Source of the DNA: Acidimicrobiales bacterium
Lineage (GTDB): Bacteria > Actinomycetota > Acidimicrobiia > Acidimicrobiales > SZUA-35
Assembly: GCA_037968895.1 (NCBI GenBank)
Contig: JBBKWJ010000208.1
Span: 1-19,980 of the forward strand
Length of the DNA stretch: 19,980 bases
Direction of reading: 5' to 3'
Position numbers and translations under genes: made by a program. The notes beneath the pieces were generated by a model that had not been told where the DNA came from, did not search any database, and saw only the letters and a program-made list of their open reading frames with translations. Shown here in pieces: positions 502 through 18,698 of the stretch. Numbering within the stretch: position 1 is the stretch's first letter; each line of letters begins with the position of its first letter.

Positions 502-1395
502 CTAGGAGGTTTTAAATCGCGCTTCGGTCGCAATGACATCAGGAAGTCCGATCAAGTCGGTAAATGCTGCGAAGGAGGGAAGCCCGTCGACGACGCCGGC
601 TGGAGTGCCTCGCTGTCGTATTCCTTTCAGCACCTCGACCATCGCTTGGGTTGCCGCGAGAATTGTCGCGATCGGCATGAGGATGGCCGCGAAACCGAGA
701 TCGGCAATTTCCCCGAGTTCGAGAGGCGGTGTCTTGCCACCTTCTACCCAGTTGAAGACACGCGGGATCGAAGAAAGTAGCTTGCTCACCGCTTCAATCT
801 CAGCCATGTCTTCGAGTGCTTCAACAAACAACAGGTCAGCGCCAGCGTCGTGATACGCCTTGGCCCGGTCGATAGCAGCCTGCAACCCGAGCGGGGCTCG
901 CGCATCGGTCCTAGCGATGATGACGAAGTCAGGGTTGGTCCGGGCAGCCACAGCGGCGCTGACCTTGGCGATCATGTCGTCTAGCGGAATGACCTCCTTG
1001 CCCTCCATGTGCCCACACCGCTTCGGCGAAACCTGGTCTTCGAGGTGAATGCCTGCAACTCCCGCTTGCTCGAAGGAACGAACGGTTCGGATGACGTTTA
1101 TCGGGTTTCCGTAACCCGTATCGGCGTCGGCGACCACTGGCAAGCTGGTGGCCTGGGTGATTCGGCGAGCGTTGTCAACCATCTCACTTAGTCCGAGGAG
1201 TCCAACGTCTGGACGGCCGAGCAGCGATGCGGCCGAGCCGAAGCCGGTCATGTACGCAGCATCAAAACCAGCCAGCTCAATGAGCCGTGCGCCAAGCGCG
1301 TCGTAACAGCCCGGAAGTAGCAGCGGTTCGTCGCGATTGAGGAGCTGTCGCAAACCAGTTGGACCGGCCGACGGTTGACCGAGAAGGTCAGTCAC
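502..1395 (-). CDS. Isocitrate lyase/PEP mutase superfamily enzyme (2-methylisocitrate lyase / oxaloacetate decarboxylase-like)
   Basis: The 297-aa product carries the superfamily hallmarks CYDALGA (near the N-terminus), EDQ...KRCGH and ARTDA. The EDQ-KRCGH signature points to an ICL/MICL-type enzyme rather than a true PEP mutase. It starts at GTG, and that start overlaps the stop of the upstream oxygenase gene as gtgacTGA. Confidence 0.75.
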   Translation of the reverse strand: MTDLLGQPSAGPTGLRQLLNRDEPLLLPGCYDALGARLIELAGFDAAYMTGFGSAASLLGRPDVGLLGLSEMVDNARRITQATSLPVVADADTGYGNPINVIRTVRSFEQAGVAGIHLEDQVSPKRCGHMEGKEVIPLDDMIAKVSAAVAARTNPDFVIIARTDARAPLGLQAAIDRAKAYHDAGADLLFVEALEDMAEIEAVSKLLSSIPRVFNWVEGGKTPPLELGEIADLGFAAILMPIATILAATQAMVEVLKGIRQRGTPAGVVDGLPSFAAFTDLIGLPDVIATEARFKTS

Positions 1396-2233
1396 TCTCG
1401 CCTCGTAGTTCTTTGATTCGCTGTTGCAGGAACGAGAACGCTGGCCTGCCCTCAGCGAGTATGACGTCGTCGGCTGGGTGGAGAAAGAGGGGCGCGGCCA
1501 TGCGGGCCCGCTTTGCCCCTTCGCCAGTCGGGTTAGTCACCCGGTGGACCGTGGCGGGGTAGTAGCCGCCACTCGCAAGCTCGAGCATCTCTCCGGCATT
1601 GACCGCGAGTGACGACGGATCGCAGGGCACTGCGTACCAGTTGCCGTCGGTTCCGAGCAGCTCAAGACCGGCCTCGTTTGACGATGGCAAAACTGTAAGC
1701 AGATTGATGTCTTTGTGAGCCGCGGCCCTGACCGCTCCCTCTTCTTCGTTGCCCTCAAGCGGTGGGTAGCGCAAGATCCGCAGGAGGCTCCTTGTGCTCT
1801 CGTCCATCATCGACGACAGCGGTTGGGAGAATCGTTCGGCTACTTCAGGAGGGGTGTTGGCCTCGACCCAGTCGAGGAGCGTCCGAGCCACTTCGGTTGC
1901 CTGTTCGGCGTACCTCAACGCTCCATCAGTGACTTCGGTTGGATACGGAGCCCATGGGTAGATGTGGAAAAACTCTTTGAGGTCTCGAATGGTGTTTCCC
2001 TGTGCTGTCTCGGCCACCGTGGGAGGAAAGTAGCCGCCTTGTGCGCCGTCACCGGACGGGTAGTTGAACCGCCCGGGATGATCAAAGAATGCGTTCCACT
2101 CGTCGAACATCGCCTGTACTGATGCCCAGTCGAGCGGGTGATTCACAACGACCGCAAATCCGGTTTTCAACAGACTCTCGGTGAAGCGTTGTGGCGCCTC
2201 AGATGACTGATAGTCGACGACGGTGACGTCCAT
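1388..2233 (-). CDS. 2-oxoglutarate/Fe(II)-dependent dioxygenase (isopenicillin-N-synthase-like family)
   Basis: The 281-aa product has the HKD...H facial-triad region (AAHKDINLLTVL ... TVHRV) and overall similarity to 2OG-Fe(II) oxygenases. A GGAGA RBS sits upstream of the ATG at 2233, and the stop overlaps the next gene's GTG start by 8 nt. Confidence 0.7.
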   Translation of the reverse strand: MDVTVVDYQSSEAPQRFTESLLKTGFAVVVNHPLDWASVQAMFDEWNAFFDHPGRFNYPSGDGAQGGYFPPTVAETAQGNTIRDLKEFFHIYPWAPYPTEVTDGALRYAEQATEVARTLLDWVEANTPPEVAERFSQPLSSMMDESTRSLLRILRYPPLEGNEEEGAVRAAAHKDINLLTVLPSSNEAGLELLGTDGNWYAVPCDPSSLAVNAGEMLELASGGYYPATVHRVTNPTGEGAKRARMAAPLFLHPADDVILAEGRPAFSFLQQRIKELRGESD

Positions 2234-2360
2234 ATTTCTCCTGTCCTTGGCTTCGCTGTAGAGATCGTATCAATTGGTCGTGCACCGAACTCCTCAGCTC
2301 CCTGACGCGCCAGAGTGCCCGCCCGGCCGGTAACCTTTCGGCTTCATCTGAAAGGACCCA

Positions 2361-2843
2361 ATGGGTACGTTCCACGAAATCTCAATGAAGTCGATTGTCG
2401 GCGACGACGTCAACTTCGCACAGTACGAAGGCCAGGTTGTCCTCGTCGTCAACGTCGCCAGCGCTTGAGGCCTTACGCCTCAGTACGCAGGTCTGCGTAC
2501 GCTTCATGAGCAGTTTGCCAACGACGGTTTTAGCGTCTTGGGTTTCCCTTGCAACCAGTTCGCAAACCAGGAACCAGGGACAAATGAAGAGATTCTTGCC
2601 TTTGCAACCGACAACTACGACGTGAACTTTCCCATGTTCGCCAAAATCGATGTCAACGGCGAACAAGAGGCGCCGCTCTTCACCTACCTGAAGGCCGCAC
2701 AGCCGAATGACGATGGCTCATCTGACATCGTGTGGAACTTCAACAAATTCCTGGTCGGTCGAGACGGTGCAGTGTTGGCCCGCTTCGCTCCAACCGTTAC
2801 TCCCGAGCAAATTGCAGAACAGCTACCTGGGTTCTTGAGCTAG
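2361..2843 (+). CDS. Glutathione peroxidase, probable selenoprotein (in-frame TGA at 2466..2468 decoded as Sec)
   Basis: The ATG at 2361 is preceded by an AAAGGA RBS. Reading through the TGA in frame gives MGTFHEISMKSIVGDDVNFAQYEGQVVLVVNVASA-U-GLTPQYAGLRTLHEQFANDGFSVLGFPCNQFANQEPG...VWNFNKFLVGRDG. The TGA sits exactly where the peroxidatic Cys/Sec lies in the GPx motif NVASxC/UGxT, and the Gln (FPCNQF) and Trp/Asn (WNFNKF) catalytic motifs are intact downstream. The six-frame track shows only the C-terminal TTG-started piece at 2538..2843. Confidence 0.75.
2479..2510 (+). other. Candidate bacterial SECIS hairpin directing Sec insertion at UGA 2466..2468
   Basis: The hairpin starts 11 nt 3' of the UGA. 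An 8-bp stem GUACGCAG/CUGCGUAC has a small GGUC-type apical loop, and it is extended by CUCA/UGAG with an asymmetric bulge. The apex GCAGGUCUGC is identical to the apical segment of the E. coli fdhF SECIS element, as I recall that sequence. Confidence 0.6.
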
Positions 2844-4649: not shown

Positions 4650-5534
4650 TCACGCCTGATCTTGGGTGTCGCCTTGATCGCTGGCAAGGTGTCCGCGCCG
4701 ATGGCCGCCCTGCCAATCTTCCTGCGCGCCTGCTGCGACAGCACCAAAGACTGCGAGCTGAGGAACTTCGCGAAGGCTGCGCTTCATCTCAGCAAAGCCA
4801 GGAAAGGCTGCGAGCGTCGTTACGGCGCTCCAGAGCGGGACCGCCTCGGCATCGCTAGGCACCCGTGAGATCACTGGTCCAAAGAACGACACACCATGCG
4901 GCGGCTCAAAGGAGATTATTGGTGTGCCAACATCTCGGCCCGTCCGGGTTAGCGCGAGCTCAGTCTCTTCGTCGAGCTCCTGGTCCCACTTGGTGTCGTC
5001 AAGCGCAGCCGCATACGAAATAGGCAATCCCGCTGCTCGCAGCACATCTTCGACGTGCTCGGTCGAACTCAGGCGCTCACGCATTCCCGAACCCTTCGGC
5101 TGGTCCCAGTAGCTCTCGCCATAGGCAGTGACGAGAGCGCCAAGTGGTTCGCGCCCAAGGTCGGCCCGAACCGCAGCCGCAACCCGAAGCATTCGGAGTC
5201 CGGCGGTGTGACCTTGCTCGTATTCGGGCGGGAACTCCGTTGCATAGTCTTTGTCTTTGTTGAGAAGGCGGAGCGAGATGAAGCGCCAGTCAACGGCGTA
5301 GCCAGTTTGTTCTGCGACCTTGACAATCCAACGTGAGGTAACCCAAGCGAAAGGACAGACCGGGTCCCAGAAGAACTCGATGTCGTAGGTGGTTGGGTCG
5401 GGATCAGTACTAGTCACGGATTGCATCCTACGGGAGCCGAAGTCGAACGACGAAATGGTGGCCGCCAAGGTGAACGGGAGGTGAACAGCCGTTGAACGAC
5501 CGAAGAAATTACGTGTCTTAGGGTCCTTGGTCAT
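4650..5534 (-). CDS. DsbA-family thiol oxidoreductase, Rv2466c-like (mycothiol-dependent reductase family), monothiol CPFA variant
   Basis: The product resembles Rv2466c-type DsbA-like proteins: FFWDPVCPFAWVTSRW, and ...DVGTPIISFEPPHGVSFFGPVISRVPSDAEAVPLWSAVTTLAAFPGFAEMKRSLREVPQL compared with Rv2466c ...[23 protein letters not shown]...FELKRTRTEPPQF. The active-site motif is CPFA rather than CPWC. The true start may be the internal ATG at 5426, at MQSVTSTDPD. Confidence 0.65.
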   Translation of the reverse strand: MTKDPKTRNFFGRSTAVHLPFTLAATISSFDFGSRRMQSVTSTDPDPTTYDIEFFWDPVCPFAWVTSRWIVKVAEQTGYAVDWRFISLRLLNKDKDYATEFPPEYEQGHTAGLRMLRVAAAVRADLGREPLGALVTAYGESYWDQPKGSGMRERLSSTEHVEDVLRAAGLPISYAAALDDTKWDQELDEETELALTRTGRDVGTPIISFEPPHGVSFFGPVISRVPSDAEAVPLWSAVTTLAAFPGFAEMKRSLREVPQLAVFGAVAAGAQEDWQGGHRRGHLASDQGDTQDQA

Positions 5535-8672: not shown

Positions 8673-10589
8673 ATGGATACGGTAATAATCGGCATTTTGG
8701 TCGTCGTAGCGGTGGTGTTGCTTGTATTACTCGCAGTCGCAGCGATGATCTCGACGTTGTACAAGAAGGTCCCTCAAGGTAAGGCGTTGGTCGTTTCGAC
8801 GATGAAGACAGTTGCCGTCACCTTCACCGGCCGAGTTGTCCTTCCGGTGGTGCACAAGGCCGAGGTGATGGACATCTCAGTGAAGACGATCGAGATCGAT
8901 CGTCGAGGCGCTGAAGGGCTTATCTGCCAGGACAACATTAGGGCTGACATCAAGGTCAACTTCTTTGTCAGGGTGAACAAGGCCGAAGAGGATGTCATCA
9001 AGGTTGCTCAAGCCATTGGTTGCAACCGGGCTAGCGACATTGTGACTCTTGAGGAGCTATTTGCTGCCAAGTTCTCCGAAGCGTTGAAGACCGTTGGCAA
9101 GCAGATGGAGTTCGTCTCGCTCTATACCGAGCGGGCTTTATTCCGTGATCGGATCATCGCCGTCATTGGCACCGATCTCAACGGGTACGCGCTCGAAGAC
9201 GTCGCTATCGACTATCTCGAGCAGACTCCCCTCAATCAGCTCGATTCGAACAACATTCTTGACGCCCAAGGCATTCGTAAGATCACTGAGCTCACTGCGA
9301 TAGAGCGCGTAGCCACCAATAACGCGTCGAACGACGAGTCGAAGCAGATAACGGCCAAGAACGTGGAGACACGGGAAGCAGTGTTGGAGCTTGAGCGTCA
9401 GCAGGCCGATGCCGAAGCGCGTCAACGTCGCGAGGTCGAGACCGTCAAGGCTCGTGAGCAAGCCACAATTGACACCATCGTCGCCGAAGAAACACTTCGA
9501 GCTGAGATGGCTAATCTCGAAGTTCAACAGAAGATTGGGATCGAGCAAGAGAACCTACAGCGCGAGGTCGAAGTCGCAGGGAAGAACCGCGAGCGAGTGC
9601 TGGCGGTTGAAACCGAGCGCGTGCAGAAGGCACAAGAGCTTGAAATGATGTCTCGCCGAGTCGAGACACTGTCGGCCGAGAAGTCGTTGGAAGAAGAGAA
9701 GGGCACGATTGCCGAGATTCGGCGGAGCCGGGTCGCCACAGAGAAGACCGTCGCTGAGCAAGAAGAGTCAATCGAGACGCTTCGTGTTGTCGAGCAAGCG
9801 AATCGGGAGCGGCAGGCAATCGTGGTCATGGCCGAGGGTGAGGCTCAGAGCCTCCTCGTCAAAGACATTAAGAAGGCTGAGGCCGCGGAAGAAGCGTCCC
9901 GCCATGAAGCGACGCGCCAGCTCACTCTGGCCAAGGCCGAAATGGAGGCCGCCGATCTTTCAGCACAAGCGAAGATTCGACTAGCTGAAGGTGTGAAAGC
10001 CGAATCAGCTGCCATCGGACTCGGCGAGGTCGAGGTTGACCGGGCAAAGGCAAACGCAATTCGGGAAACCGGAATCGCACACGTCGACGTCGAGCGAGCA
10101 CAGGCCGAGATTGTTCGCGAGCTCGGAACCGCCGAAGCCTCCGCCATAGAGGCCAAGTTGAAGGGCGAGGCCTCTGGTCTGACCGAAAAGGCTGAAGCCA
10201 TGAAGAAGCTCGAAGGCGTTGGACAAGAGCACGAAGAGTTCGTACGCGAGCTTGAAGCAGATACCAAGGTGCGACTTGCCGAGGTCGAGGCTCGAGTCGG
10301 TGTCGCAACGGCTCAGGCCGACGCGATGAAGACCGGTCTCGAGAATGCCAACATCGATATTGTCGGCGGCTCGGACATTTTCATTGACCGACTCGTCGGC
10401 TCTATTTCGGCTGGCAAATCAGTCGACGCATTCGTTGACTCATCGGAGGTCGCGGCCACCGCGGCAGCCCCGTACCTAGAAGGCAAGGAAGACCTCATCG
10501 CCAAGATTGGTGAGGCAGTATCAGGTATGGGTGCTGACGGCATCCGTGACCTCACTGTGGCTGATCTGCTTCGCAAACTCGGCAAGTGA
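8673..10589 (+). CDS. Flotillin-like SPFH/band-7 protein (YqiK/FloT family) with a long E/A/R-rich coiled-coil C-terminal region
   Basis: An N-terminal TM helix (IIGILVVVAVVLLVLLAVAAMI) is followed by LYKKVPQGKALVV and an SPFH domain, then roughly 350 aa of EA-rich heptad repeats. An AAGGATAAGGGG RBS precedes the ATG. The architecture matches E. coli YqiK and B. subtilis FloT. Confidence 0.85.
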   Translation: MDTVIIGILVVVAVVLLVLLAVAAMISTLYKKVPQGKALVVSTMKTVAVTFTGRVVLPVVHKAEVMDISVKTIEIDRRGAEGLICQDNIRADIKVNFFVRVNKAEEDVIKVAQAIGCNRASDIVTLEELFAAKFSEALKTVGKQMEFVSLYTERALFRDRIIAVIGTDLNGYALEDVAIDYLEQTPLNQLDSNNILDAQGIRKITELTAIERVATNNASNDESKQITAKNVETREAVLELERQQADAEARQRREVETVKAREQATIDTIVAEETLRAEMANLEVQQKIGIEQENLQREVEVAGKNRERVLAVETERVQKAQELEMMSRRVETLSAEKSLEEEKGTIAEIRRSRVATEKTVAEQEESIETLRVVEQANRERQAIVVMAEGEAQSLLVKDIKKAEAAEEASRHEATRQLTLAKAEMEAADLSAQAKIRLAEGVKAESAAIGLGEVEVDRAKANAIRETGIAHVDVERAQAEIVRELGTAEASAIEAKLKGEASGLTEKAEAMKKLEGVGQEHEEFVRELEADTKVRLAEVEARVGVATAQADAMKTGLENANIDIVGGSDIFIDRLVGSISAGKSVDAFVDSSEVAATAAAPYLEGKEDLIAKIGEAVSGMGADGIRDLTVADLLRKLGK

Positions 10590-13500
10590 GCACTTATGAC
10601 CTCCTTCGTAGTCGGCTTGAGGCGAGCGCAACTGCGCTCGCCGAGCGCGCTGGTTCGCTCAACAAGCGTCGAACCGAGGTCTTTGGGTCGTCCGTATTCG
10701 CGTTGAGGGGAACCGAGCGGCTCCGTAGCGAAAACGCAAACGTGCCCCGCGATGTTTCAAGTATCGACGGCCAACTCATTGTTGCGTACAACCCGGCACC
10801 GGGAGCGCTGACGTCAGTCAAGCCAAACGACATTTTTGCTATCCACAATCTGGAGCGTTCGTCGTCAGGCGAGATGGTACTTAACGCGAACCCGAACGGG
10901 CTCGATGCGTCTGTCCTTGACGACGCCCAGTTTCGACGCGACTTCGACGAGCTTCATACGTACTACAAAGACGCTCGAGTCCAGCAGTTGTATCGTGTTG
11001 CGAACCGCATGCTCGCTGTATTCCGCATTGGGACAGCGCGTTCTGACATCCGAGTTCTGAGATGGTCAGTCAATCCTGACGGGTCACTCCAGTACCTCGA
11101 CGCTCGCGGCGAACGTGATCACAAAGCGCCTGCTCGCCACGATGTCGACTGGACGTTGGTGACTCGGGAAGACCATGTCGGCGAGTCACACGTCTCGCTA
11201 TCGGACCGGGTACTGATTAACCCTCTCAACGGCACCATTGAGCTGATGATGCCCGACCGTTCGCTTCTGCTGAGCGATCCGGTGAACCATGCCGACCAGT
11301 CACTTGCGGACTGCACAATCCGGTGGGCAACGTGTGGCGACCTCATCGTCATCGACCTGTTGCCGTACGGCGAGCTCGACCATCGCTACTACGTCGCGAA
11401 TTTGCTCGATCACACTGCCACCAGAATTGATGAACTTGGTCAGGCGTTTCGCCAGTTGCCCGAGGGACAGGGTTTCATCCATCCGAGAGGTGTCTTTCTC
11501 AAGAATGGACAACACCAGTCGTTCGATCTCGAGGCCGACCAGATGGAACTACTTGAGGTTGTGCGATCACCCAATGGCGAGGACATGTTGTATGTCTTCT
11601 ACGAGCAGGAATCAGGACGGTCGATCCTCCTGCCATACAACGTGGTTCGCCAGGAGGTCACGACTCCACTTCGGTGCGATGGGCATTCGATCTTTGCTGA
11701 CGGAACCATGGTGATGTTCCGCGAAGAACATGAGCCCACCCGAATTCACCCAATGCAGATTTGGGAGACCCCATTCGCCAGCGACGAATGGTTCGCCGCT
11801 CAACCTCGCGAGATCTCCGACCTTGACCGAATAGGAAATGCTGCGCTCGTGCGAGGCATTGCTGACGCGCTTGCGCTTTCGAGACTCATTGGCAGCATTG
11901 AACCCTCGTCGGAGCTCTACGGTGACCTCCTCGGCTCCGTGGGGCGCTTCCTCGACCAGCATCATTGGGCAGAGTCAGTCGATGTTGGCAACCTCGCTGA
12001 ACCGGCACGAGAGATGCAGGTTGTTGCTGGACAGGTCATTGACGAGTTCGAACGAGTGCTCGAGGTTAAAGCCGTGGCAACGGCGACGCTCGACGAAGCG
12101 CGTCAGACGTTCAATCAGCATCACGAAGAAGAACGAATTTCGCCGCCGGCGACCACAGAAGCGTTCATCAATCTGCTAGGGCTTTATCGCCACGATCTGG
12201 GCCATCTTCACTCGATCCGAGACCAGCCTGAAGTCGACGTGGCCGCTGTCGACGAACTAGTAACCGAAGCAACCGCAGCCCACGCCGCAACGGCTCAGAA
12301 GGCGGCCGGACACCTCGCAGGCGACGGAGCATTTGCTCCTTACCACGAACGATTAGCGCGGATCACAGGTTCAATCGACGAAGCTGGGTCGTCAATCGCA
12401 GCGCGTGAGCTCCTTGAGGAAGTCGACGGGGTTGCAACCTCAATGGACGTGGTTTCTTCCACCGTTGGCGACCTTGTTGTTGACGACCCCCGAGTGCGAA
12501 CTTCAGTTCTCGAACAGGTGTCGCAGGTTCTCGCTTCCTTAAATCAGGTGCGAGCTCGTGTCGAGACGAAACAAGAATCGCTGATTGAGGCAGAGACCGG
12601 AGCGTCGTTCGCAACCGAGCTTGGGCTCTTTGGTCAGTCGATTGCATCGGCACTGAGCAGAGTCGATGAGCCGAAGGGGTGCGACGAAGCGTTGGGGCGG
12701 CTTCTTCTGCAGCTCGAACAGCTTGAGACTGCTGGTCCGCGCAGCGACGAGCAGATCCGTGAGCTTGAACTTCGTCGCGAGCAGGTAACCGAAACGGTCT
12801 CGGCGCGGCGCCAGAAACTCGTCGATGAACGGGAGGCCAAAGCACAACGGCTCGTTGGAGCCGCCGAGCGAACACTCGAACGGATCACAGAACGTGCGGC
12901 GGCACTTCCGTCCGTGGACGATGTGAACGGGTTCTTTGCCGCTGATCCCATGACTGCTCGCGTCCGCGACCTGACAGACCAGCTTCGCGAGCTCGGCGAG
13001 GCCGTAAAGGCGGACGAACTCAAGAGCCAGTTGGGGGCGGCTCGCGACAATGCGGCGCGCCTCATTCTCGATCGAGCCGAACTCTTCGACGGCGAGCTCA
13101 TCAAACTTGGTCGCCATCGTTTTAGCGTCGACAAACAGCGCCGCGAACTGACGATCGTGCCCCGAGACGGACGTTTACAGGCTGTCTTGACCGGAACAGA
13201 CTTCGCACTCGACCTCCACGATGAGCGCCTAGAAGCGCACCGTGACCTGTGGAGCGAACCGCTGGTGTCGGAGTCGCGTGACCTCTACCGGGGTGCATAC
13301 CTCGCGGCCGGCATCCTTGACGACGCCTTGAGTTCTGGACAAGTGCCAATGTGGGAAGACGTCGTTCGCGAAGCAGTCGACTCTCGTCTCGACGAGGGCT
13401 ACGACCGCGGTGTGCATGACCACGATGCAGTCCTCCTCGTATCGGCGTGGGCAGCAGGCGCAGCGACTGCTGGCCCTCTCCTGTATCCAAGCCGTGTTCG

Positions 13501-15262
13501 GGCCGAGGCGCTGTGGCACTGGTTCGACGAACTGAGCGAGGAACAGCGGGTCGATTGGATCGGCCGTGGCAAGGCGGCAGCCGAGCTCGGACAAGCAGTT
13601 GAGCCCGTTCTCGGCAGCTACATGGCAGACGAACTCACCGCATCTGCGGGGTTCGCTCCGTCGATGTCTCACGAGACCGCGCGCCATGTGCGGCTGTTTT
13701 CCGGCGACCAGAAAGTGCAATCGGTGCTTACGTCGGCCAGCCAAAATCCACGAGCGTATCGAGAGGTACTTGAGCGGTACGTCGCCGCTTCGGCACCCTA
13801 CGACATCGCAGCCGAGATTGTCGTCACGCTCCTGTTCCCAGAGCCTGAGCGCCGTATTCGCACGATCGATCTCGACTGCACCGTCAGCGGTCTGCTAGGA
13901 CGTCACCCAACGATTCAGGATGGCACGCTCAGAGTGTCTCTCGACGAGCTGCTTGACCTGTCCCGCCACCAACGCAACGATGTTGCGCCCCGTCACCGGG
14001 CATTTGTGGCGGCTCGGCGTGAAATCGTCGACCAGCTCAAGGGAAACCTCCGCGTACATGACCTTGTGCCGCACGTGCCAGAAGGCTTTGTGCGAAACCG
14101 GCTTATCGACGAGGTGTATCTCCCGCTCATTGGCGGCAACCTGGCTCGCCAGATCGGCACTGTCGACGACACATCTGCTGCACGATCGGGCCTTCTGATG
14201 CTGCTGTCGCCTCCCGGTTACGGCAAGACAACACTCATTGAGTACGTGGCTGATCGCCTAGGTATGGCGCTAGTTAAGGTGTCCGGACCGGGGTTGGGAC
14301 ACGATGTCACATCGCTTGACCCGGCTCAGGCGGCGAGTAGCACGTCTCGTCGTGAGCTCGATCGAATCAACATGGCGTTTGCGATTGCGTCAAACGTGAT
14401 CCTCTACATCGACGACATTCAGCACACGAATCCCGAGTTTCTACAGCGCTTCATTTCACTCACTGATGCTCAACGAAGAGTCGAGGGGGTGCTTGAAGGC
14501 GAATCGCGCACGTTCGATCTTCGTGGAAAGCGCTTTGCCGTCGTCATGGCCGGCAATCCGTATACAGAGTCGGGGGAGCGGTTTCGTATTCCCGACATGC
14601 TGGCAAACCGTGCCGATACCTACAACCTGGGTGATGTGCTGGCAGACAGTGAGCGTGCCTTTGCGCTTAGCTACATCGAGAACTCTCTCACATCCAACCC
14701 GGCTGTGACCCGAATCGGGCGTGACCTCGATGCGTTCATGGCTGGCCTGGATGGTGGGTCGGTCGACGAAGCGGCGCTGACCCAGCGCTATTCTGCGGCC
14801 GAACAGAACGATATTGTTCGCCTGCTCCATCACCTCAGAACTGTCCAGCAGACGGTTCTGACAGTGAATAGGCAGTACATCGCGTCTGCGGCGACAGGGG
14901 ATGCATATCGCACCGAACCGCCGTTTCTGCTGCAAGGTTCATACCGAAATATGACGAGATTGGCAGCACAGTTGCTGCCAGCGATGACAGAGGATGAAGT
15001 TGAGGAGATTCTCGACGCTCACTACACGGCTGAGTCTCAGTCATTGACTGGAGCGGCCGAGGCGAATCTTCTGAAGCTGGCGCAACTTCGAGGCAAGATG
15101 ACGCCAACCCAAGAGACTCGCTGGAACGAGATCATCACAGTCTTCCAGCGAAAGCAGCGCCTTGGTGGTGGCGACGACGACCCTGTTGCGCGCGTCGTCG
15201 CCGCGATAGATCAGGTCTCCGATGCCCTGAGCGGTCGAGTCAACCACTCTCCGTACGATTAG
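10586..15262 (+). CDS. Giant (1558 aa) flotillin-associated protein with a C-terminal AAA_5 (MoxR/McrB-like) ATPase domain; function unknown
   Basis: The GTG start overlaps the flotillin TGA stop (aaGTGAgc). A Walker A motif LLMLLSPPGYGKTTL lies at roughly nt 14210-14240. A Walker B motif VILYIDDIQH lies at roughly nt 14395-14425. Sensor-1 is AVVMAGNPY, and a MoxR-like motif is FRIPDMLANRADTY. The central region, roughly aa 600-900, is long, helical and coiled-coil-like. The first ~400 aa match no family I recognise. Confidence 0.8.
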   Translation: MSTYDLLRSRLEASATALAERAGSLNKRRTEVFGSSVFALRGTERLRSENANVPRDVSSIDGQLIVAYNPAPGALTSVKPNDIFAIHNLERSSSGEMVLNANPNGLDASVLDDAQFRRDFDELHTYYKDARVQQLYRVANRMLAVFRIGTARSDIRVLRWSVNPDGSLQYLDARGERDHKAPARHDVDWTLVTREDHVGESHVSLSDRVLINPLNGTIELMMPDRSLLLSDPVNHADQSLADCTIRWATCGDLIVIDLLPYGELDHRYYVANLLDHTATRIDELGQAFRQLPEGQGFIHPRGVFLKNGQHQSFDLEADQMELLEVVRSPNGEDMLYVFYEQESGRSILLPYNVVRQEVTTPLRCDGHSIFADGTMVMFREEHEPTRIHPMQIWETPFASDEWFAAQPREISDLDRIGNAALVRGIADALALSRLIGSIEPSSELYGDLLGSVGRFLDQHHWAESVDVGNLAEPAREMQVVAGQVIDEFERVLEVKAVATATLDEARQTFNQHHEEERISPPATTEAFINLLGLYRHDLGHLHSIRDQPEVDVAAVDELVTEATAAHAATAQKAAGHLAGDGAFAPYHERLARITGSIDEAGSSIAARELLEEVDGVATSMDVVSSTVGDLVVDDPRVRTSVLEQVSQVLASLNQVRARVETKQESLIEAETGASFATELGLFGQSIASALSRVDEPKGCDEALGRLLLQLEQLETAGPRSDEQIRELELRREQVTETVSARRQKLVDEREAKAQRLVGAAERTLERITERAAALPSVDDVNGFFAADPMTARVRDLTDQLRELGEAVKADELKSQLGAARDNAARLILDRAELFDGELIKLGRHRFSVDKQRRELTIVPRDGRLQAVLTGTDFALDLHDERLEAHRDLWSEPLVSESRDLYRGAYLAAGILDDALSSGQVPMWEDVVREAVDSRLDEGYDRGVHDHDAVLLVSAWAAGAATAGPLLYPSRVRAEALWHWFDELSEEQRVDWIGRGKAAAELGQAVEPVLGSYMADELTASAGFAPSMSHETARHVRLFSGDQKVQSVLTSASQNPRAYREVLERYVAASAPYDIAAEIVVTLLFPEPERRIRTIDLDCTVSGLLGRHPTIQDGTLRVSLDELLDLSRHQRNDVAPRHRAFVAARREIVDQLKGNLRVHDLVPHVPEGFVRNRLIDEVYLPLIGGNLARQIGTVDDTSAARSGLLMLLSPPGYGKTTLIEYVADRLGMALVKVSGPGLGHDVTSLDPAQAASSTSRRELDRINMAFAIASNVILYIDDIQHTNPEFLQRFISLTDAQRRVEGVLEGESRTFDLRGKRFAVVMAGNPYTESGERFRIPDMLANRADTYNLGDVLADSERAFALSYIENSLTSNPAVTRIGRDLDAFMAGLDGGSVDEAALTQRYSAAEQNDIVRLLHHLRTVQQTVLTVNRQYIASAATGDAYRTEPPFLLQGSYRNMTRLAAQLLPAMTEDEVEEILDAHYTAESQSLTGAAEANLLKLAQLRGKMTPTQETRWNEIITVFQRKQRLGGGDDDPVARVVAAIDQVSDALSGRVNHSPYD

Positions 15263-16372: not shown

Positions 16373-17200
16373 CCTTGGCGAGCAGCCTGTTGGCGACGAA
16401 GCTCGCAGCGACCGAAGCGACGCGTACATGCGAGCGAGGGGAGTGTCGTCGGAGACGCCGACTGCGCCGTACACCTGAATTGCCTGATCAACGACAGTAG
16501 TAGCCGTCTGCATCACGAGAACTTTAATGGCCGACATGTCGGGCGCCGCTGCCTTGTCGCCCTCGACGTCCATCTACCACGCAGTGTGCAACGTCATGAG
16601 TCTGGCCGAATCAATGTTGATTCGGGCGTTTGCGATCCATTCTTGGATGTTCGCTCGAGACGAAACGAGTCCGCCGAACGTGGAGCGACTGTCTGCCCGT
16701 TCGCACAGGAGCGAGAGGGCCTGTTCCGCGACGCCGATGGTCCTCATGCAGTGCTGCACTCTCGCTGGTTGCCTAGGAGTGCGTCGGCTGGCAAACGTAC
16801 GTTGTTGAGTGCCAATTCGGTGTGTCCGTCGGCGTCCAGGTAACCAAACTTCGGCAGATTGCGAACCACGGTGAGGCCTGGAGTATCTCTGGGCACGACA
16901 AACACGGAATGTCGGCGGTGTCGTGACGCGGCGGGATCCGACCATCAAGTTGGGGCGTCAGCCACTGCTCCTTCTGGGCTGCGCTCCCATACAGGATGAG
17001 AGCATCACCGTTGATACTTGATGGCGCGTCGCAGTTGGTTGCCTCTTGGGCCAGCCGACTTGTGCCGAGGATCTCAGCGAGCGGGGCGTAGTCGAGGCTC
17101 GTCAGTCCAGGACCGTAGTTCGGAGGTCTGACGCCAGCGTGAGGGAACGATTCGAATGCGTGAAATCCATCAGTGGTCCTCCGTGGCGTGCCGTCAATCT
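16340..17200 (-). pseudogene. Acyl-CoA dehydrogenase pseudogene (internal deletion, frameshift and in-frame TAG)
   Basis: The minus-strand translation gives ACAD blocks in three different frames: RPPNYGPGLTSLDYAPLAEILGTSRLAQEATNCDAPSSINGDALILYGSAAQKEQWLTPQLDGRI, then about 90 aa missing (no RSCFAMTEP block), then SVFVVPRDTPGLTVVRNLPKFGYLDADGHTELALNNVRLPADALLGNQRE, then a frame change to ...RVQHCMRTIGVAEQALSLLCERADSRSTFGGLVSSRANIQEWIANARINIDSARLMTLHTAW, then an in-frame TAG at about 16574, then MDVEGDKAAAPDMSAIKVLVMQTATTVVDQAIQVYGAVGVSDDTPLARMY. The N-terminus is truncated by a stop, and both ends are approximate. Confidence 0.7.
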
Positions 17201-17267
17201 AGTGTGGCGGAAGTATCCGCAAGCTAATCCGGTTAGAAGACTGACCATCCCGCAGATAGGACGCGCT

Positions 17268-18698
17268 TTGAGCAACAACCAATACGATCTTGTGGCAATT
17301 GGTGGGGGAACGGCCGCCCTCGTCGCCACTATCGCTGCTGCGGGCCTTGGGGCCAAAGCCGTCCTAATTGAAATGGAGAAGCCAGGGGGCGACTGCCTCT
17401 GGACTGGTTGCGTGCCAAGCAAGGCGCTTCTGTCCGCGGCTGCGTTGGCAAGCGATATGCGTAACGCGAAGTCAGTTGGACTGAGCGCAGTAGAACCAGT
17501 GATCGACTTTCCTGCAGTCATGGCACACGTCAAAGGCGCGCAGGCCGTTATTGAGCCCCATGATTCGGCTGAGCACCTCGAGGCAGAAGGAGTCGAGGTC
17601 ATCATCGGCCGAGGCGAGTTTCTCGGCCCAGGCAAGATCAAGGTTGGCGACCGAGTGATCGAGTTTCGTTCGGCTCTCATCGCGACCGGTTCGCATCCTG
17701 TGGTTCCGCCAATTCCGGGGCTGGTTGACGCGGATCCGCTGACCAGCCATAACGTCTGGGACCTCAAGGCCCTCCCAGCCCGTCTTGTCGTCCTTGGCGG
17801 GGGGCCGATCGGTTGTGAGCTTGGTCAGGCGTTCGGTCGACTCGGATCGAACGTCACATTGATCGAAGCCGAAGCAGGCCTACTTCCCCGTGAGCCAAGC
17901 GAGGTGGGCGCCTATCTGGGCGAGGTCCTTCGCTCCGAAGGCATCGATGTGCGAGTCGGTGTTCGAGCCGAGTCAGTCGAGGCCCATGAAGGGGCATACC
18001 GAGTTAATCTGGCCGACGGAACCTCGGTTGACTTCGACAGGATTCTCGTGGCTGTCGGCCGCCGGGCCAACTCTGCGAACCTCGGACTTGAGCTTGTCGG
18101 TGTAGACGTCGACGAAAGAGGCCACGTCGTCGTCGACGACACGATGCGGACTACTGGCGACAACATCTTCGCTGCCGGAGATGTGACAGGGAAGATGCCG
18201 TTTACGCCCGTCGCCGCACACCAGGCCAGGGCCGTCGTGGCGAACGCCCTGTTCAAAGCGCGTAAGAAGGCCAAGTACGACCAGATCCCCTGGGTTACGT
18301 TCACTGCTCCAGAGATCGCAAGGGTAGGGCTCGACGGCGCAGCAGCCCGTGAGAAGTGGGGATCCAAGGCGATCGTCGAGCGGTTCGACTACGCCAACCT
18401 CGACCGAGCCATAACGCACGGACGGACAGGAGGCTGGGTCGAACTCGTCGGTGACAAGAAGCGAAGAATTGTTGGCGCGACCATCGTTGGTGAGGCGGCA
18501 GGGGAGAGCATCGCCGAGATCGTCGCCTTCATGACTGCAGGCGCCAAGATCGACACACTGTCGACGACTGTGCATGCCTATCCAACCTTTTCCGAGGGGG
18601 CGAGCCGAGCAGCAAATAGTGTTCTCGCGGACCGCTACTTCAGTCCGAGAGCCAAGCGAGTTAGTTCGATGGTCCGACGAGTACTTCGTCTGTTCTAG
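17268..18698 (+). CDS. FAD-dependent pyridine nucleotide-disulfide oxidoreductase, class I (dihydrolipoyl dehydrogenase / mercuric reductase-like)
   Basis: The product has the Rossmann motif YDLVAIGGGTAA, the redox-active disulfide GGDCLWTGCVPSK, a second dinucleotide fold LVVLGGGPIGCELGQ, and the C-terminal dimerisation His-Pro motif HAYPTFSE. I place the start at TTG 17268 (AGGA plus 6 nt) because the 74 aa added by the track's ATG at 17046 have no family similarity and run antisense over the ACAD pseudogene. Confidence 0.75.
   Translation: MSNNQYDLVAIGGGTAALVATIAAAGLGAKAVLIEMEKPGGDCLWTGCVPSKALLSAAALASDMRNAKSVGLSAVEPVIDFPAVMAHVKGAQAVIEPHDSAEHLEAEGVEVIIGRGEFLGPGKIKVGDRVIEFRSALIATGSHPVVPPIPGLVDADPLTSHNVWDLKALPARLVVLGGGPIGCELGQAFGRLGSNVTLIEAEAGLLPREPSEVGAYLGEVLRSEGIDVRVGVRAESVEAHEGAYRVNLADGTSVDFDRILVAVGRRANSANLGLELVGVDVDERGHVVVDDTMRTTGDNIFAAGDVTGKMPFTPVAAHQARAVVANALFKARKKAKYDQIPWVTFTAPEIARVGLDGAAAREKWGSKAIVERFDYANLDRAITHGRTGGWVELVGDKKRRIVGATIVGEAAGESIAEIVAFMTAGAKIDTLSTTVHAYPTFSEGASRAANSVLADRYFSPRAKRVSSMVRRVLRLF

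Follow-up and report, generated by a model that had tools for sequence, protein, structure and literature searches.

The stretch from position 1 to 19,980 of contig JBBKWJ010000208.1 of an Acidimicrobiales bacterium (NCBI GenBank assembly GCA_037968895.1), referred to here as the window, carries a glutathione peroxidase (GPx) gene whose reading frame contains an internal TGA. We are confident that this UGA, at positions 2466-2468, is a genuine selenocysteine (Sec) codon and that the gene encodes an intact Sec-containing GPx (Sec-GPx) of the GPx4-like, monomer type. A preliminary description, made from the DNA alone, had proposed a selenoprotein here, and the proposal is borne out by conservation of the TGA together with a downstream hairpin, by purifying selection on both sides of the codon and by synonymous sites that are frozen within the hairpin. 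The features on which the argument draws, including the hairpin that we assign as a Sec insertion sequence (SECIS), are as follows.

2351..2356, + strand: Shine-Dalgarno-like AAAGGA, 4 nt before the ATG, read in the sequence; it also precedes the ATG in the orthologues on two syntenic contigs, L001 and L002
2361..2843, + strand: glutathione peroxidase coding sequence (CDS), 160 codons including Sec36, plus TAG (2841-2843), with the ATG at 2361-2363; from translation and the Pfam GSHPx match
2466..2468, + strand: UGA codon 36, the peroxidatic residue, read as selenocysteine; aligned to the catalytic Cys of Cys-type homologues
2466..2482, + strand: possible lower helix that includes the UGA, UGAGGC/GCCUCA; predicted in the window, weakly supported
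2483..2500, + strand: SECIS apical hairpin GUACGCA-GGUC-UGCGUAC, a perfect 7-bp stem (2483-2489/2494-2500) with the loop GGUC at 2490-2493; from folding and conservation
2544..2570, + strand: FPCNQF (codons 62-67) and catalytic Gln70; invariant columns of alignment A1
2733..2738, + strand: catalytic Trp125 and Asn126 (WNF motif), with WNFNKFLV running from codon 125; invariant columns of alignment A1

Translation gives a single plus-strand frame from the ATG at 2361 to the TAG ending at 2843, with 160 sense codons and one internal TGA in the context VVLVVNVASA-TGA-GLTPQYAGLR. With Cys put at the TGA for the profile search, the read-through product matches Pfam GSHPx (PF00255) over the entire profile (positions 1-108 of 108; 2.1e-42 and 143.6 bits, where the cut-off is 27 bits), and relatives in the Protein Data Bank (PDB) align with it along the whole chain (4.6e-42 for yeast Hyr1/Gpx3, 7.5e-40 for poplar GPx5 and about 1e-37 for human GPX4). 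Homology this strong to solved GPx structures leaves no real dispute over the fold. A mechanical listing of open reading frames (ORFs) contains only a TTG-started C-terminal fragment of 101 aa, at 2538-2843, so that the gene is hidden from standard ORF calling, as the preliminary description had said. Its other readings of the gene also hold: the in-frame TGA, a read-through GPx of about 160 aa, and the FPCNQF and WNFNKFLV motifs all lie where it had placed them, and the alignment that it had proposed, of the read-through protein with Cys- and Sec-containing GPx sequences (A1), puts the TGA on the catalytic Cys column.

The full-length profile match and the Sec/Cys-Gln-Trp-Asn tetrad together place the product in the glutathione peroxidase family. 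U36, Q70, W125 and N126 all fall on invariant columns of A1, where the members of the tetrad were assigned through what we take to be the corresponding GPX4 numbering. At the codon-36 column, Cys stands in P0002, P0005, P0008-P0010, P0014, P0015, P0021, P0072 and P0092; of 206 unique Sec forms, 203 have the Gln motif and all have WNF. The column of the resolving Cys (the FC motif after EEI) holds Ala82 in the window protein (EILAFATD), and across the same 206 sequences it holds Ala in 125, Val in 73 and Cys in none. The only remaining Cys of the window protein is the family-wide Cys of FPCNQF. The protein thus lacks the resolving Cys that marks atypical 2-Cys (thioredoxin-dependent) GPx enzymes and, as far as the sequence indicates, is a single-redox-residue peroxidase.

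The preliminary description had alluded to a hairpin without giving its coordinates; this hairpin exists, at 2483-2500. It begins 14 nt past the UGA, such that the two Gs of its loop lie 22 and 23 nt after the codon, and it is the second of two small hairpins predicted in the RNA 3' of the TGA. The fold has a free energy of -9.9 kcal/mol (z = -3.05 against dinucleotide shuffles), and the 18-mer occurs once in the window, where 0.01 occurrences are expected by chance. In the published description of bacterial SECIS elements, a stem of 6-8 bp carries a loop whose conserved G lies about 20 nt past the UGA (PMC4605307), and the window element, with its 7-bp stem, GGUC loop and Gs at 22-23 nt, agrees with that description. 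The 10-nt apex GCAGGUCUGC is identical to the apex of the functional Escherichia coli fdhF-type mini-SECIS, and the hairpin core GCAGGTCTGC recurs without a change as the core of the E. coli mini-SECIS ggttgcaggtctgcacc, a 17-nt bacterial-type element that drives Sec insertion in E. coli (PMC3834832). Compared with the fdhF-type element (17-nt mini-element GGUUGCAGGUCUGCACC), the window hairpin shares the apex and the GGUC loop on a G-C-rich upper stem, as well as its location inside the CDS shortly after the UGA, but the bases below the fourth pair differ. A search of the window with Rfam at gathering thresholds returned no RNA family.

Genes orthologous to that of the window retain both the TGA and the hairpin. 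Contigs L001 (GCA_041394345.1, from an Acidimicrobiales metagenome-assembled genome [MAG]) and L002 (ERZ23877680) are syntenic with the window: all three share a 2-oxoglutarate (2OG) oxygenase, the GPx, a DUF2339 gene and a Na/Pi-PhoU gene, and L002 additionally shares with the window an Rv2466c-like gene and a giant DUF3686 ATPase. The full-length proteins are 82% (L001) and 89% (L002) identical to that of the window, and the three genes differ from one another at 62-120 of 483 nucleotides; for the two orthologues against the window the figure is 62-107, with all of these changes lying outside the TGA and the hairpin. Against this background of divergence, the ATG, the TGA and an identical hairpin are kept in both orthologues; counted from the TGA, the first 39 nt are the same in the window and L002, and L001 shows no change within the stem-loop. 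The ratio of nonsynonymous to synonymous substitution rates (dN/dS) against L001 and L002 is 0.26-0.36 over codons 1-35 and 0.07-0.09 over codons 37-160, and because it is low on either side of the TGA, both halves of the gene are maintained as protein. The orthologues therefore combine a conserved UGA with purifying selection upstream and downstream of it.

The same arrangement recurs far beyond these contigs. A metagenome scan whose pattern fixed only V-N-V-A-S-x-TGA-G-x-T-P-Q-Y yielded at least 120 stretches, and the matches listed comprise at least 109 of bacterial type and 11 of eukaryote type. Those of bacterial type have an ATG about 35 codons upstream and about 120 open codons downstream, with the hairpin in nearly all of those listed. 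The 11 listed matches of eukaryote type (VNVASF-U-GSTPQY, with short exons and introns; L004, L013, L026, L046, L050, L078, L082, L099, L101, L104 and L109) are without the hairpin, as is expected where the SECIS lies in the 3' untranslated region (UTR), and they serve as a natural negative control. One match, L061 (RCNG010072185.1, approximately 53-106), has lost the SECIS apex and meets a stop nine codons after the TGA; it is probably either a true pseudogene or an assembly error.

Constraint at the level of RNA was assessed in 106 unique bacterial sequences (codons) and in an ungapped alignment of 93 distinct sequences (helices). The codons at +7 to +10, which form the apex and the 3' arm, are nearly fixed: GCA in 96 of 104, GGT in 96 of 105, CTG in 96 of 105 and CGT in 97 of 99 (91-98%). 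Entropy at these hairpin codons is 0.16-0.47 bit, versus 1.0-1.7 bit at other four-fold codons in the same alignment, and Ala and Gly residues elsewhere seldom use GCA or GGT (3/106 each). The apical helix is 98% paired over the 93 sequences. At two of its stem pairs both partners have changed together (U-A for C-G in four sequences, A-U for G-C in two), and neither pair is ever broken on one side alone; one further pair alternates between U-A and U-G. These compensatory changes alter the protein (Arg to His in one case, Ala/Arg to Thr/Cys in the other), an indication that it is the RNA structure, and not the peptide, that is conserved. The RNA of the hairpin is under selection. A lower helix that includes the UGA was considered as a family feature and rejected: 83% of its cells are paired, and of its six pairs, two are disrupted in roughly half of the sequences, whereas the other four are invariant because the amino acids are fixed.

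Whether the hairpin merely follows from the peptide was examined by comparing Sec and Cys forms of the same peptide. We scanned the genomes of Genome Taxonomy Database (GTDB) species representatives, allowing TGA, TGC or TGT and requiring the peptide QYAGLR, and obtained at least 119 matches; among those listed, 116 have TGA and 3 have TGC. All seven stem pairs are formed in 108 of the 116 listed TGA genes, and six of seven in the remaining 8. The three TGC genes form four of seven, and two further Cys-forms that were fetched by protein identity, P0010 and P0002, form three and six of seven, respectively. The hairpin is accordingly absent from four of five independent Cys-forms that have the QYAGLR peptide, and it thus tracks the TGA. 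The QYAGLR peptide is almost diagnostic of the Sec form, and the SECIS constrains the local protein sequence. P0002 (L252, 501-980), a TGC form that is 64% identical to the window protein, retains a relic hairpin, GUACGC-CGGUCU-GCGUGC, and looks like a recent switch from Sec to Cys.

By a hand count of titles, about 92 of the 116 listed TGA genomes are Actinomycetota, mostly Acidimicrobiales and Ilumatobacteraceae, and the other 24 belong to Pseudomonadales, Myxococcota and Verrucomicrobiota. Protein identity to the window gene product is approximately 60% in all of these phyla, a distribution that is compatible, at the level of sequence, with horizontal spread of Sec-GPx across phyla. The carriers include two cultured organisms, Ilumatobacter nonamiensis YM16-303 (L160) and Salinilacustrithrix flava EGI L10123 (L152).

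The lineage to which these carriers belong uses Sec. I. nonamiensis YM16-303, which has the orthologous gene with TGA and hairpin, is listed as SelD+/SelA+/SelB+ with 10 selenoproteins, and I. coccineus likewise as SelD+/SelA+/SelB+ with 15 known selenoproteins (Peng et al. 2016, PMC5029168 Tables S1, S2); moreover, selA, selB, selC and selD are reported from all 84 complete genomes of Actinomarina (Actinomarinales, of the same class; 2026 preprint). Within the loci that we fetched, selD was found in L237 and L242-L250 only. Contig JANPBU010000048.1 of an Acidimicrobiia MAG (L237/L242) carries a Sec-GPx together with a selD that itself has a TGA, at SHGAG-U-ACKLG, followed by a hairpin; this selD lies at 9908-10987 of L242, with the TGA at 9965-9967, and three further selD genes, in L243, L244 and L245 near position 10000, show the same arrangement. 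On L244 (10001-13296), the Sec-selD and a Sec-GPx that was called as a 101-aa fragment stand 2 kb from each other, with genes for a LacI-type regulator and a pseudouridine synthase between them, and JANPBU010000048.1 has a similar neighbourhood of selD, pseudouridine synthase and GPx. Public records of selD are called about 20 aa short (P0121, P0126, P0142 and P0237). Because its gene has an in-frame TGA and a hairpin, SelD, too, is a selenoprotein in this Acidimicrobiia MAG lineage.

Several observations weigh against a Sec codon in the window gene. A 2026 review still places bacterial Sec-GPx among proteins "predicted with high confidence" rather than among those demonstrated by experiment (PMC13188914). 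The window contains no selA, selB, selD or tRNA-Sec (ARAGORN for the tRNA), and selA, selB and tRNA-Sec were not found in the fetched loci (0.67 + 0.85 + 0.1 Mb, roughly 1.7 Mb), which were searched by phmmer with E. coli proteins as queries and by ARAGORN; none of the six contigs with selD matches comes from the assemblies of the syntenic orthologues (GCA_041394345.1 and ERZ23877680). Taken as a single sequence, the 60 nt after the UGA fold only marginally better than shuffles (z = -1.97). The predicted stem is a perfect 7 bp and lacks the bulged U of the fdhF-type upper stem, a base that matters in the E. coli SECIS. Finally, the loop is 3 nt (one codon) further from the UGA than in fdhF, given the fdhF numbering that we assume here.

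Of the explanations that dispense with Sec, the one that survives best, itself improbable, is decoding of the UGA as a standard amino acid by a near-cognate tRNA (for Trp, Cys or Arg), with the hairpin acting only to slow ribosomes or to promote read-through. Hairpins downstream of a stop codon can have such an effect in other systems, and some pipelines do translate the codon as Trp (P0001 has W where its DNA has TGA). A Trp or Arg at the peroxidatic position would yield a dead enzyme, yet the rest of the tetrad is strictly conserved; moreover, the loop is of the SelB-type GGUC sequence on an apex identical to that of the E. coli SECIS, a carrier genome has SelA, SelB and SelD, and Sec-selD occurs on the same contigs as Sec-GPx. 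Marginally less probable still is a pseudogene, in which a nonsense change of TGC or TGT to TGA inactivated a Cys-type GPx and left the downstream TTG-started fragment without function. The truncated gene calls (123 aa for P0003 and 101 aa for P0024) would fit such decay, and broken copies do exist, as L061 illustrates; but the same TGA recurs in at least 116 species-level genomes and no fewer than 109 metagenome contigs, dN/dS is 0.07-0.36, synonymous sites within the hairpin hardly vary, and a 7-bp hairpin with compensatory changes would not outlast the decay of its gene. Disrupted orthologues, which the preliminary description had named as grounds for abandoning the idea, did not materialize: L001, L002 and their relatives keep the TGA and the hairpin and have no other stops, frameshifts or further lesions, save for L061. 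There is next to no probability that the TGA is an error of sequencing or assembly, or that UGA is reassigned throughout the genome (genetic code 4 or 25). One base separates TGA from TGC or TGT and the W in JGI proteins suggests a code-4 gene call on some contigs, but the same TGA appears in independent assemblies from many projects. In the window, TGA terminates 6 of 15 large genes and occurs internally in none of the 14 genes other than the GPx, and TGG serves as the Trp codon.

If the UGA is decoded as Sec, the hairpin at 2483-2500 would expose its GGUC loop during translation, and SelB, competing with release factor 2, would bring the tRNA to the UGA at 2466-2468 and so place Sec at codon 36; we infer this SelB step because the hairpin agrees with the description of bacterial SECIS elements and matches that of E. 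coli. The resulting 160-aa enzyme would reduce hydroperoxides through the Sec36 selenolate, helped by Gln70, Trp125 and Asn126, where the residues are identified by alignment and the peroxidase chemistry is predicted from knowledge of the family. Since there is no resolving Cys, the selenenic acid would probably be reduced directly by an external thiol, candidates being thioredoxin, mycothiol/mycoredoxin and other thiols of low molecular weight. In Actinomycetota, mycothiol generally takes the place of glutathione. A more speculative extension, which we put forward only tentatively and regard as unlikely to hold in full, is that the Acidimicrobiia clade of Sec-GPx consists of selenium-dependent peroxidases acting with mycothiol or another non-glutathione thiol, having one redox residue each and recycled directly by mycothiol/mycoredoxin instead of by glutathione or an internal resolving Cys, and that the near-invariant, E. 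coli-like SECIS moved with the gene by horizontal transfer among Actinomycetota, Pseudomonadales, Myxococcota and Verrucomicrobiota. Were this so, E. coli could express the gene directly, and the product would be a natural Sec-peroxidase of bacterial origin.

Among enzymes of known structure, yeast Gpx3/Hyr1 (PDB 3cmi) and poplar GPx5 (2p5q) are the best-scoring relatives and have the same length and architecture, but they combine a peroxidatic Cys with a resolving Cys (the FC motif), where the window protein has Sec and Ala. Human GPX4 (PDB 2obi) aligns with query residues 3-158 over chain residues 35-191, has the Sec/Gln/Trp/Asn tetrad and, like the window protein, no resolving Cys; it differs in its eukaryotic SECIS, which has another structure and lies in the 3' UTR, whereas the window SECIS is inside the CDS. 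The alignment to GPX4 covers 156 query versus 157 chain residues, in contrast to 137 versus 162 for the tetrameric bovine GPx1, and these lengths point to a monomeric, GPx4-like architecture without oligomerisation-loop insertions. The best NCBIfam match is to the E. coli BtuE-type GPx (NF007900), a bacterial homologue that is a Cys enzyme; because the score of 188 bits is below the equivalog cut-off of 270, the window protein is not a BtuE orthologue.

The closest known system is the family of bacterial GPX-like selenoproteins (UxxT motif, PF00255), which, as reported in PMC13188914, was first predicted in 2004 with Treponema denticola WP_010957027.1 (Kryukov and Gladyshev). GPx-like selenoproteins with bacterial SECIS elements were then found in Sargasso Sea data in 2005 (PMC1088965) and also in Global Ocean Sampling (GOS) metagenomes (PMC2398784). 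The window gene resembles this family in the UGA at the peroxidatic position of a GSHPx domain, in the U-G-x-T motif, in the SECIS hairpin with a loop G directly downstream, and in having widespread Cys-type homologues. It appears to differ in belonging to a large, mostly Acidimicrobiia clade with a near-invariant apex (GCAGGUCUGCGU) and the QYAGLR peptide. The window gene thus adds one more member to a known family and does not represent a novel type of system; because predictions of that family date back to 2004-2005, the gene is less novel than the preliminary description implied; nor does the finding change the understanding of Sec recoding or GPx catalysis.

The main value of the finding lies in annotation, in that the catalytic residue and the whole selenoprotein are missed in many Acidimicrobiia genomes. 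Used as a protein query, the read-through product retrieves truncated relatives such as P0003 (123 aa, titled "MAG: glutathione peroxidase [Acidimicrobiales bacterium]") and P0024 (101 aa), in keeping with the earlier remark that Sec-GPx genes are routinely mis-annotated. In other records, the UGA is given as Trp: the JGI record P0001 has Trp where the DNA codon is TGA (L251, 1133-1135), and P0004, P0006 and P0007 also have W at the Sec column, so that the source pipeline evidently translated UGA as Trp for the contigs of these JGI records. That bacterial Sec-GPx genes are uncommon, as had also been stated, stands for isolates, given the 2016 count of 13 among more than 5200 genomes, but not for this one clade, which is widespread in Acidimicrobiia MAGs and far commoner in environmental Actinomycetota than the 13 organisms counted then. 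The cultured carriers make an experimental test of this still-predicted family feasible.

The surroundings of the GPx gene vary among its carriers. Across 241 loci, there is no conserved operon or gene partner of Sec-GPx, and only L001 and L002 share neighbours with the window; an Rv2466c-like gene lies near the GPx in 5 of the 241 loci and selD in 1 of the 241, plus L244. We found no promoter-like or terminator-like sites around the GPx gene in the window, the source of which has a G+C content of about 58-60%. Two genes from the GPx, the window encodes an Rv2466c-like protein (4650-5534, - strand; mycothiol-dependent nitroreductase/DsbA-like) that has CPFAW where the CxxC motif is expected. 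The 2OG-Fe(II) oxygenase of the window (1388-2233) has an orthologue in L001 (8121-8992) that is called as two genes, of 124 and 157 aa, a split that may reflect a frameshift or an internal stop.

A screen of the window for other in-frame TGA codons with an open frame on both sides found a strong hairpin only at 17019-17021 (-24 kcal/mol); we rejected this Sec candidate, as its frame is Arg-rich and looks non-coding. The codon is upstream of a pyridine-nucleotide disulphide oxidoreductase ORF (17046-18698), whose flavin adenine dinucleotide (FAD) domain starts only at residue 80, and the true start of that gene is probably further downstream than 17046. Between 7452 and 16372, four ORFs without a Pfam match (139, 252, 638 and 355 aa) surround a 1558-aa DUF3686/DUF7902/AAA ATPase (10586-15262); the block is syntenic in L002 up to the DUF3686 gene, where L002 ends, and it might be a repair or defence module.

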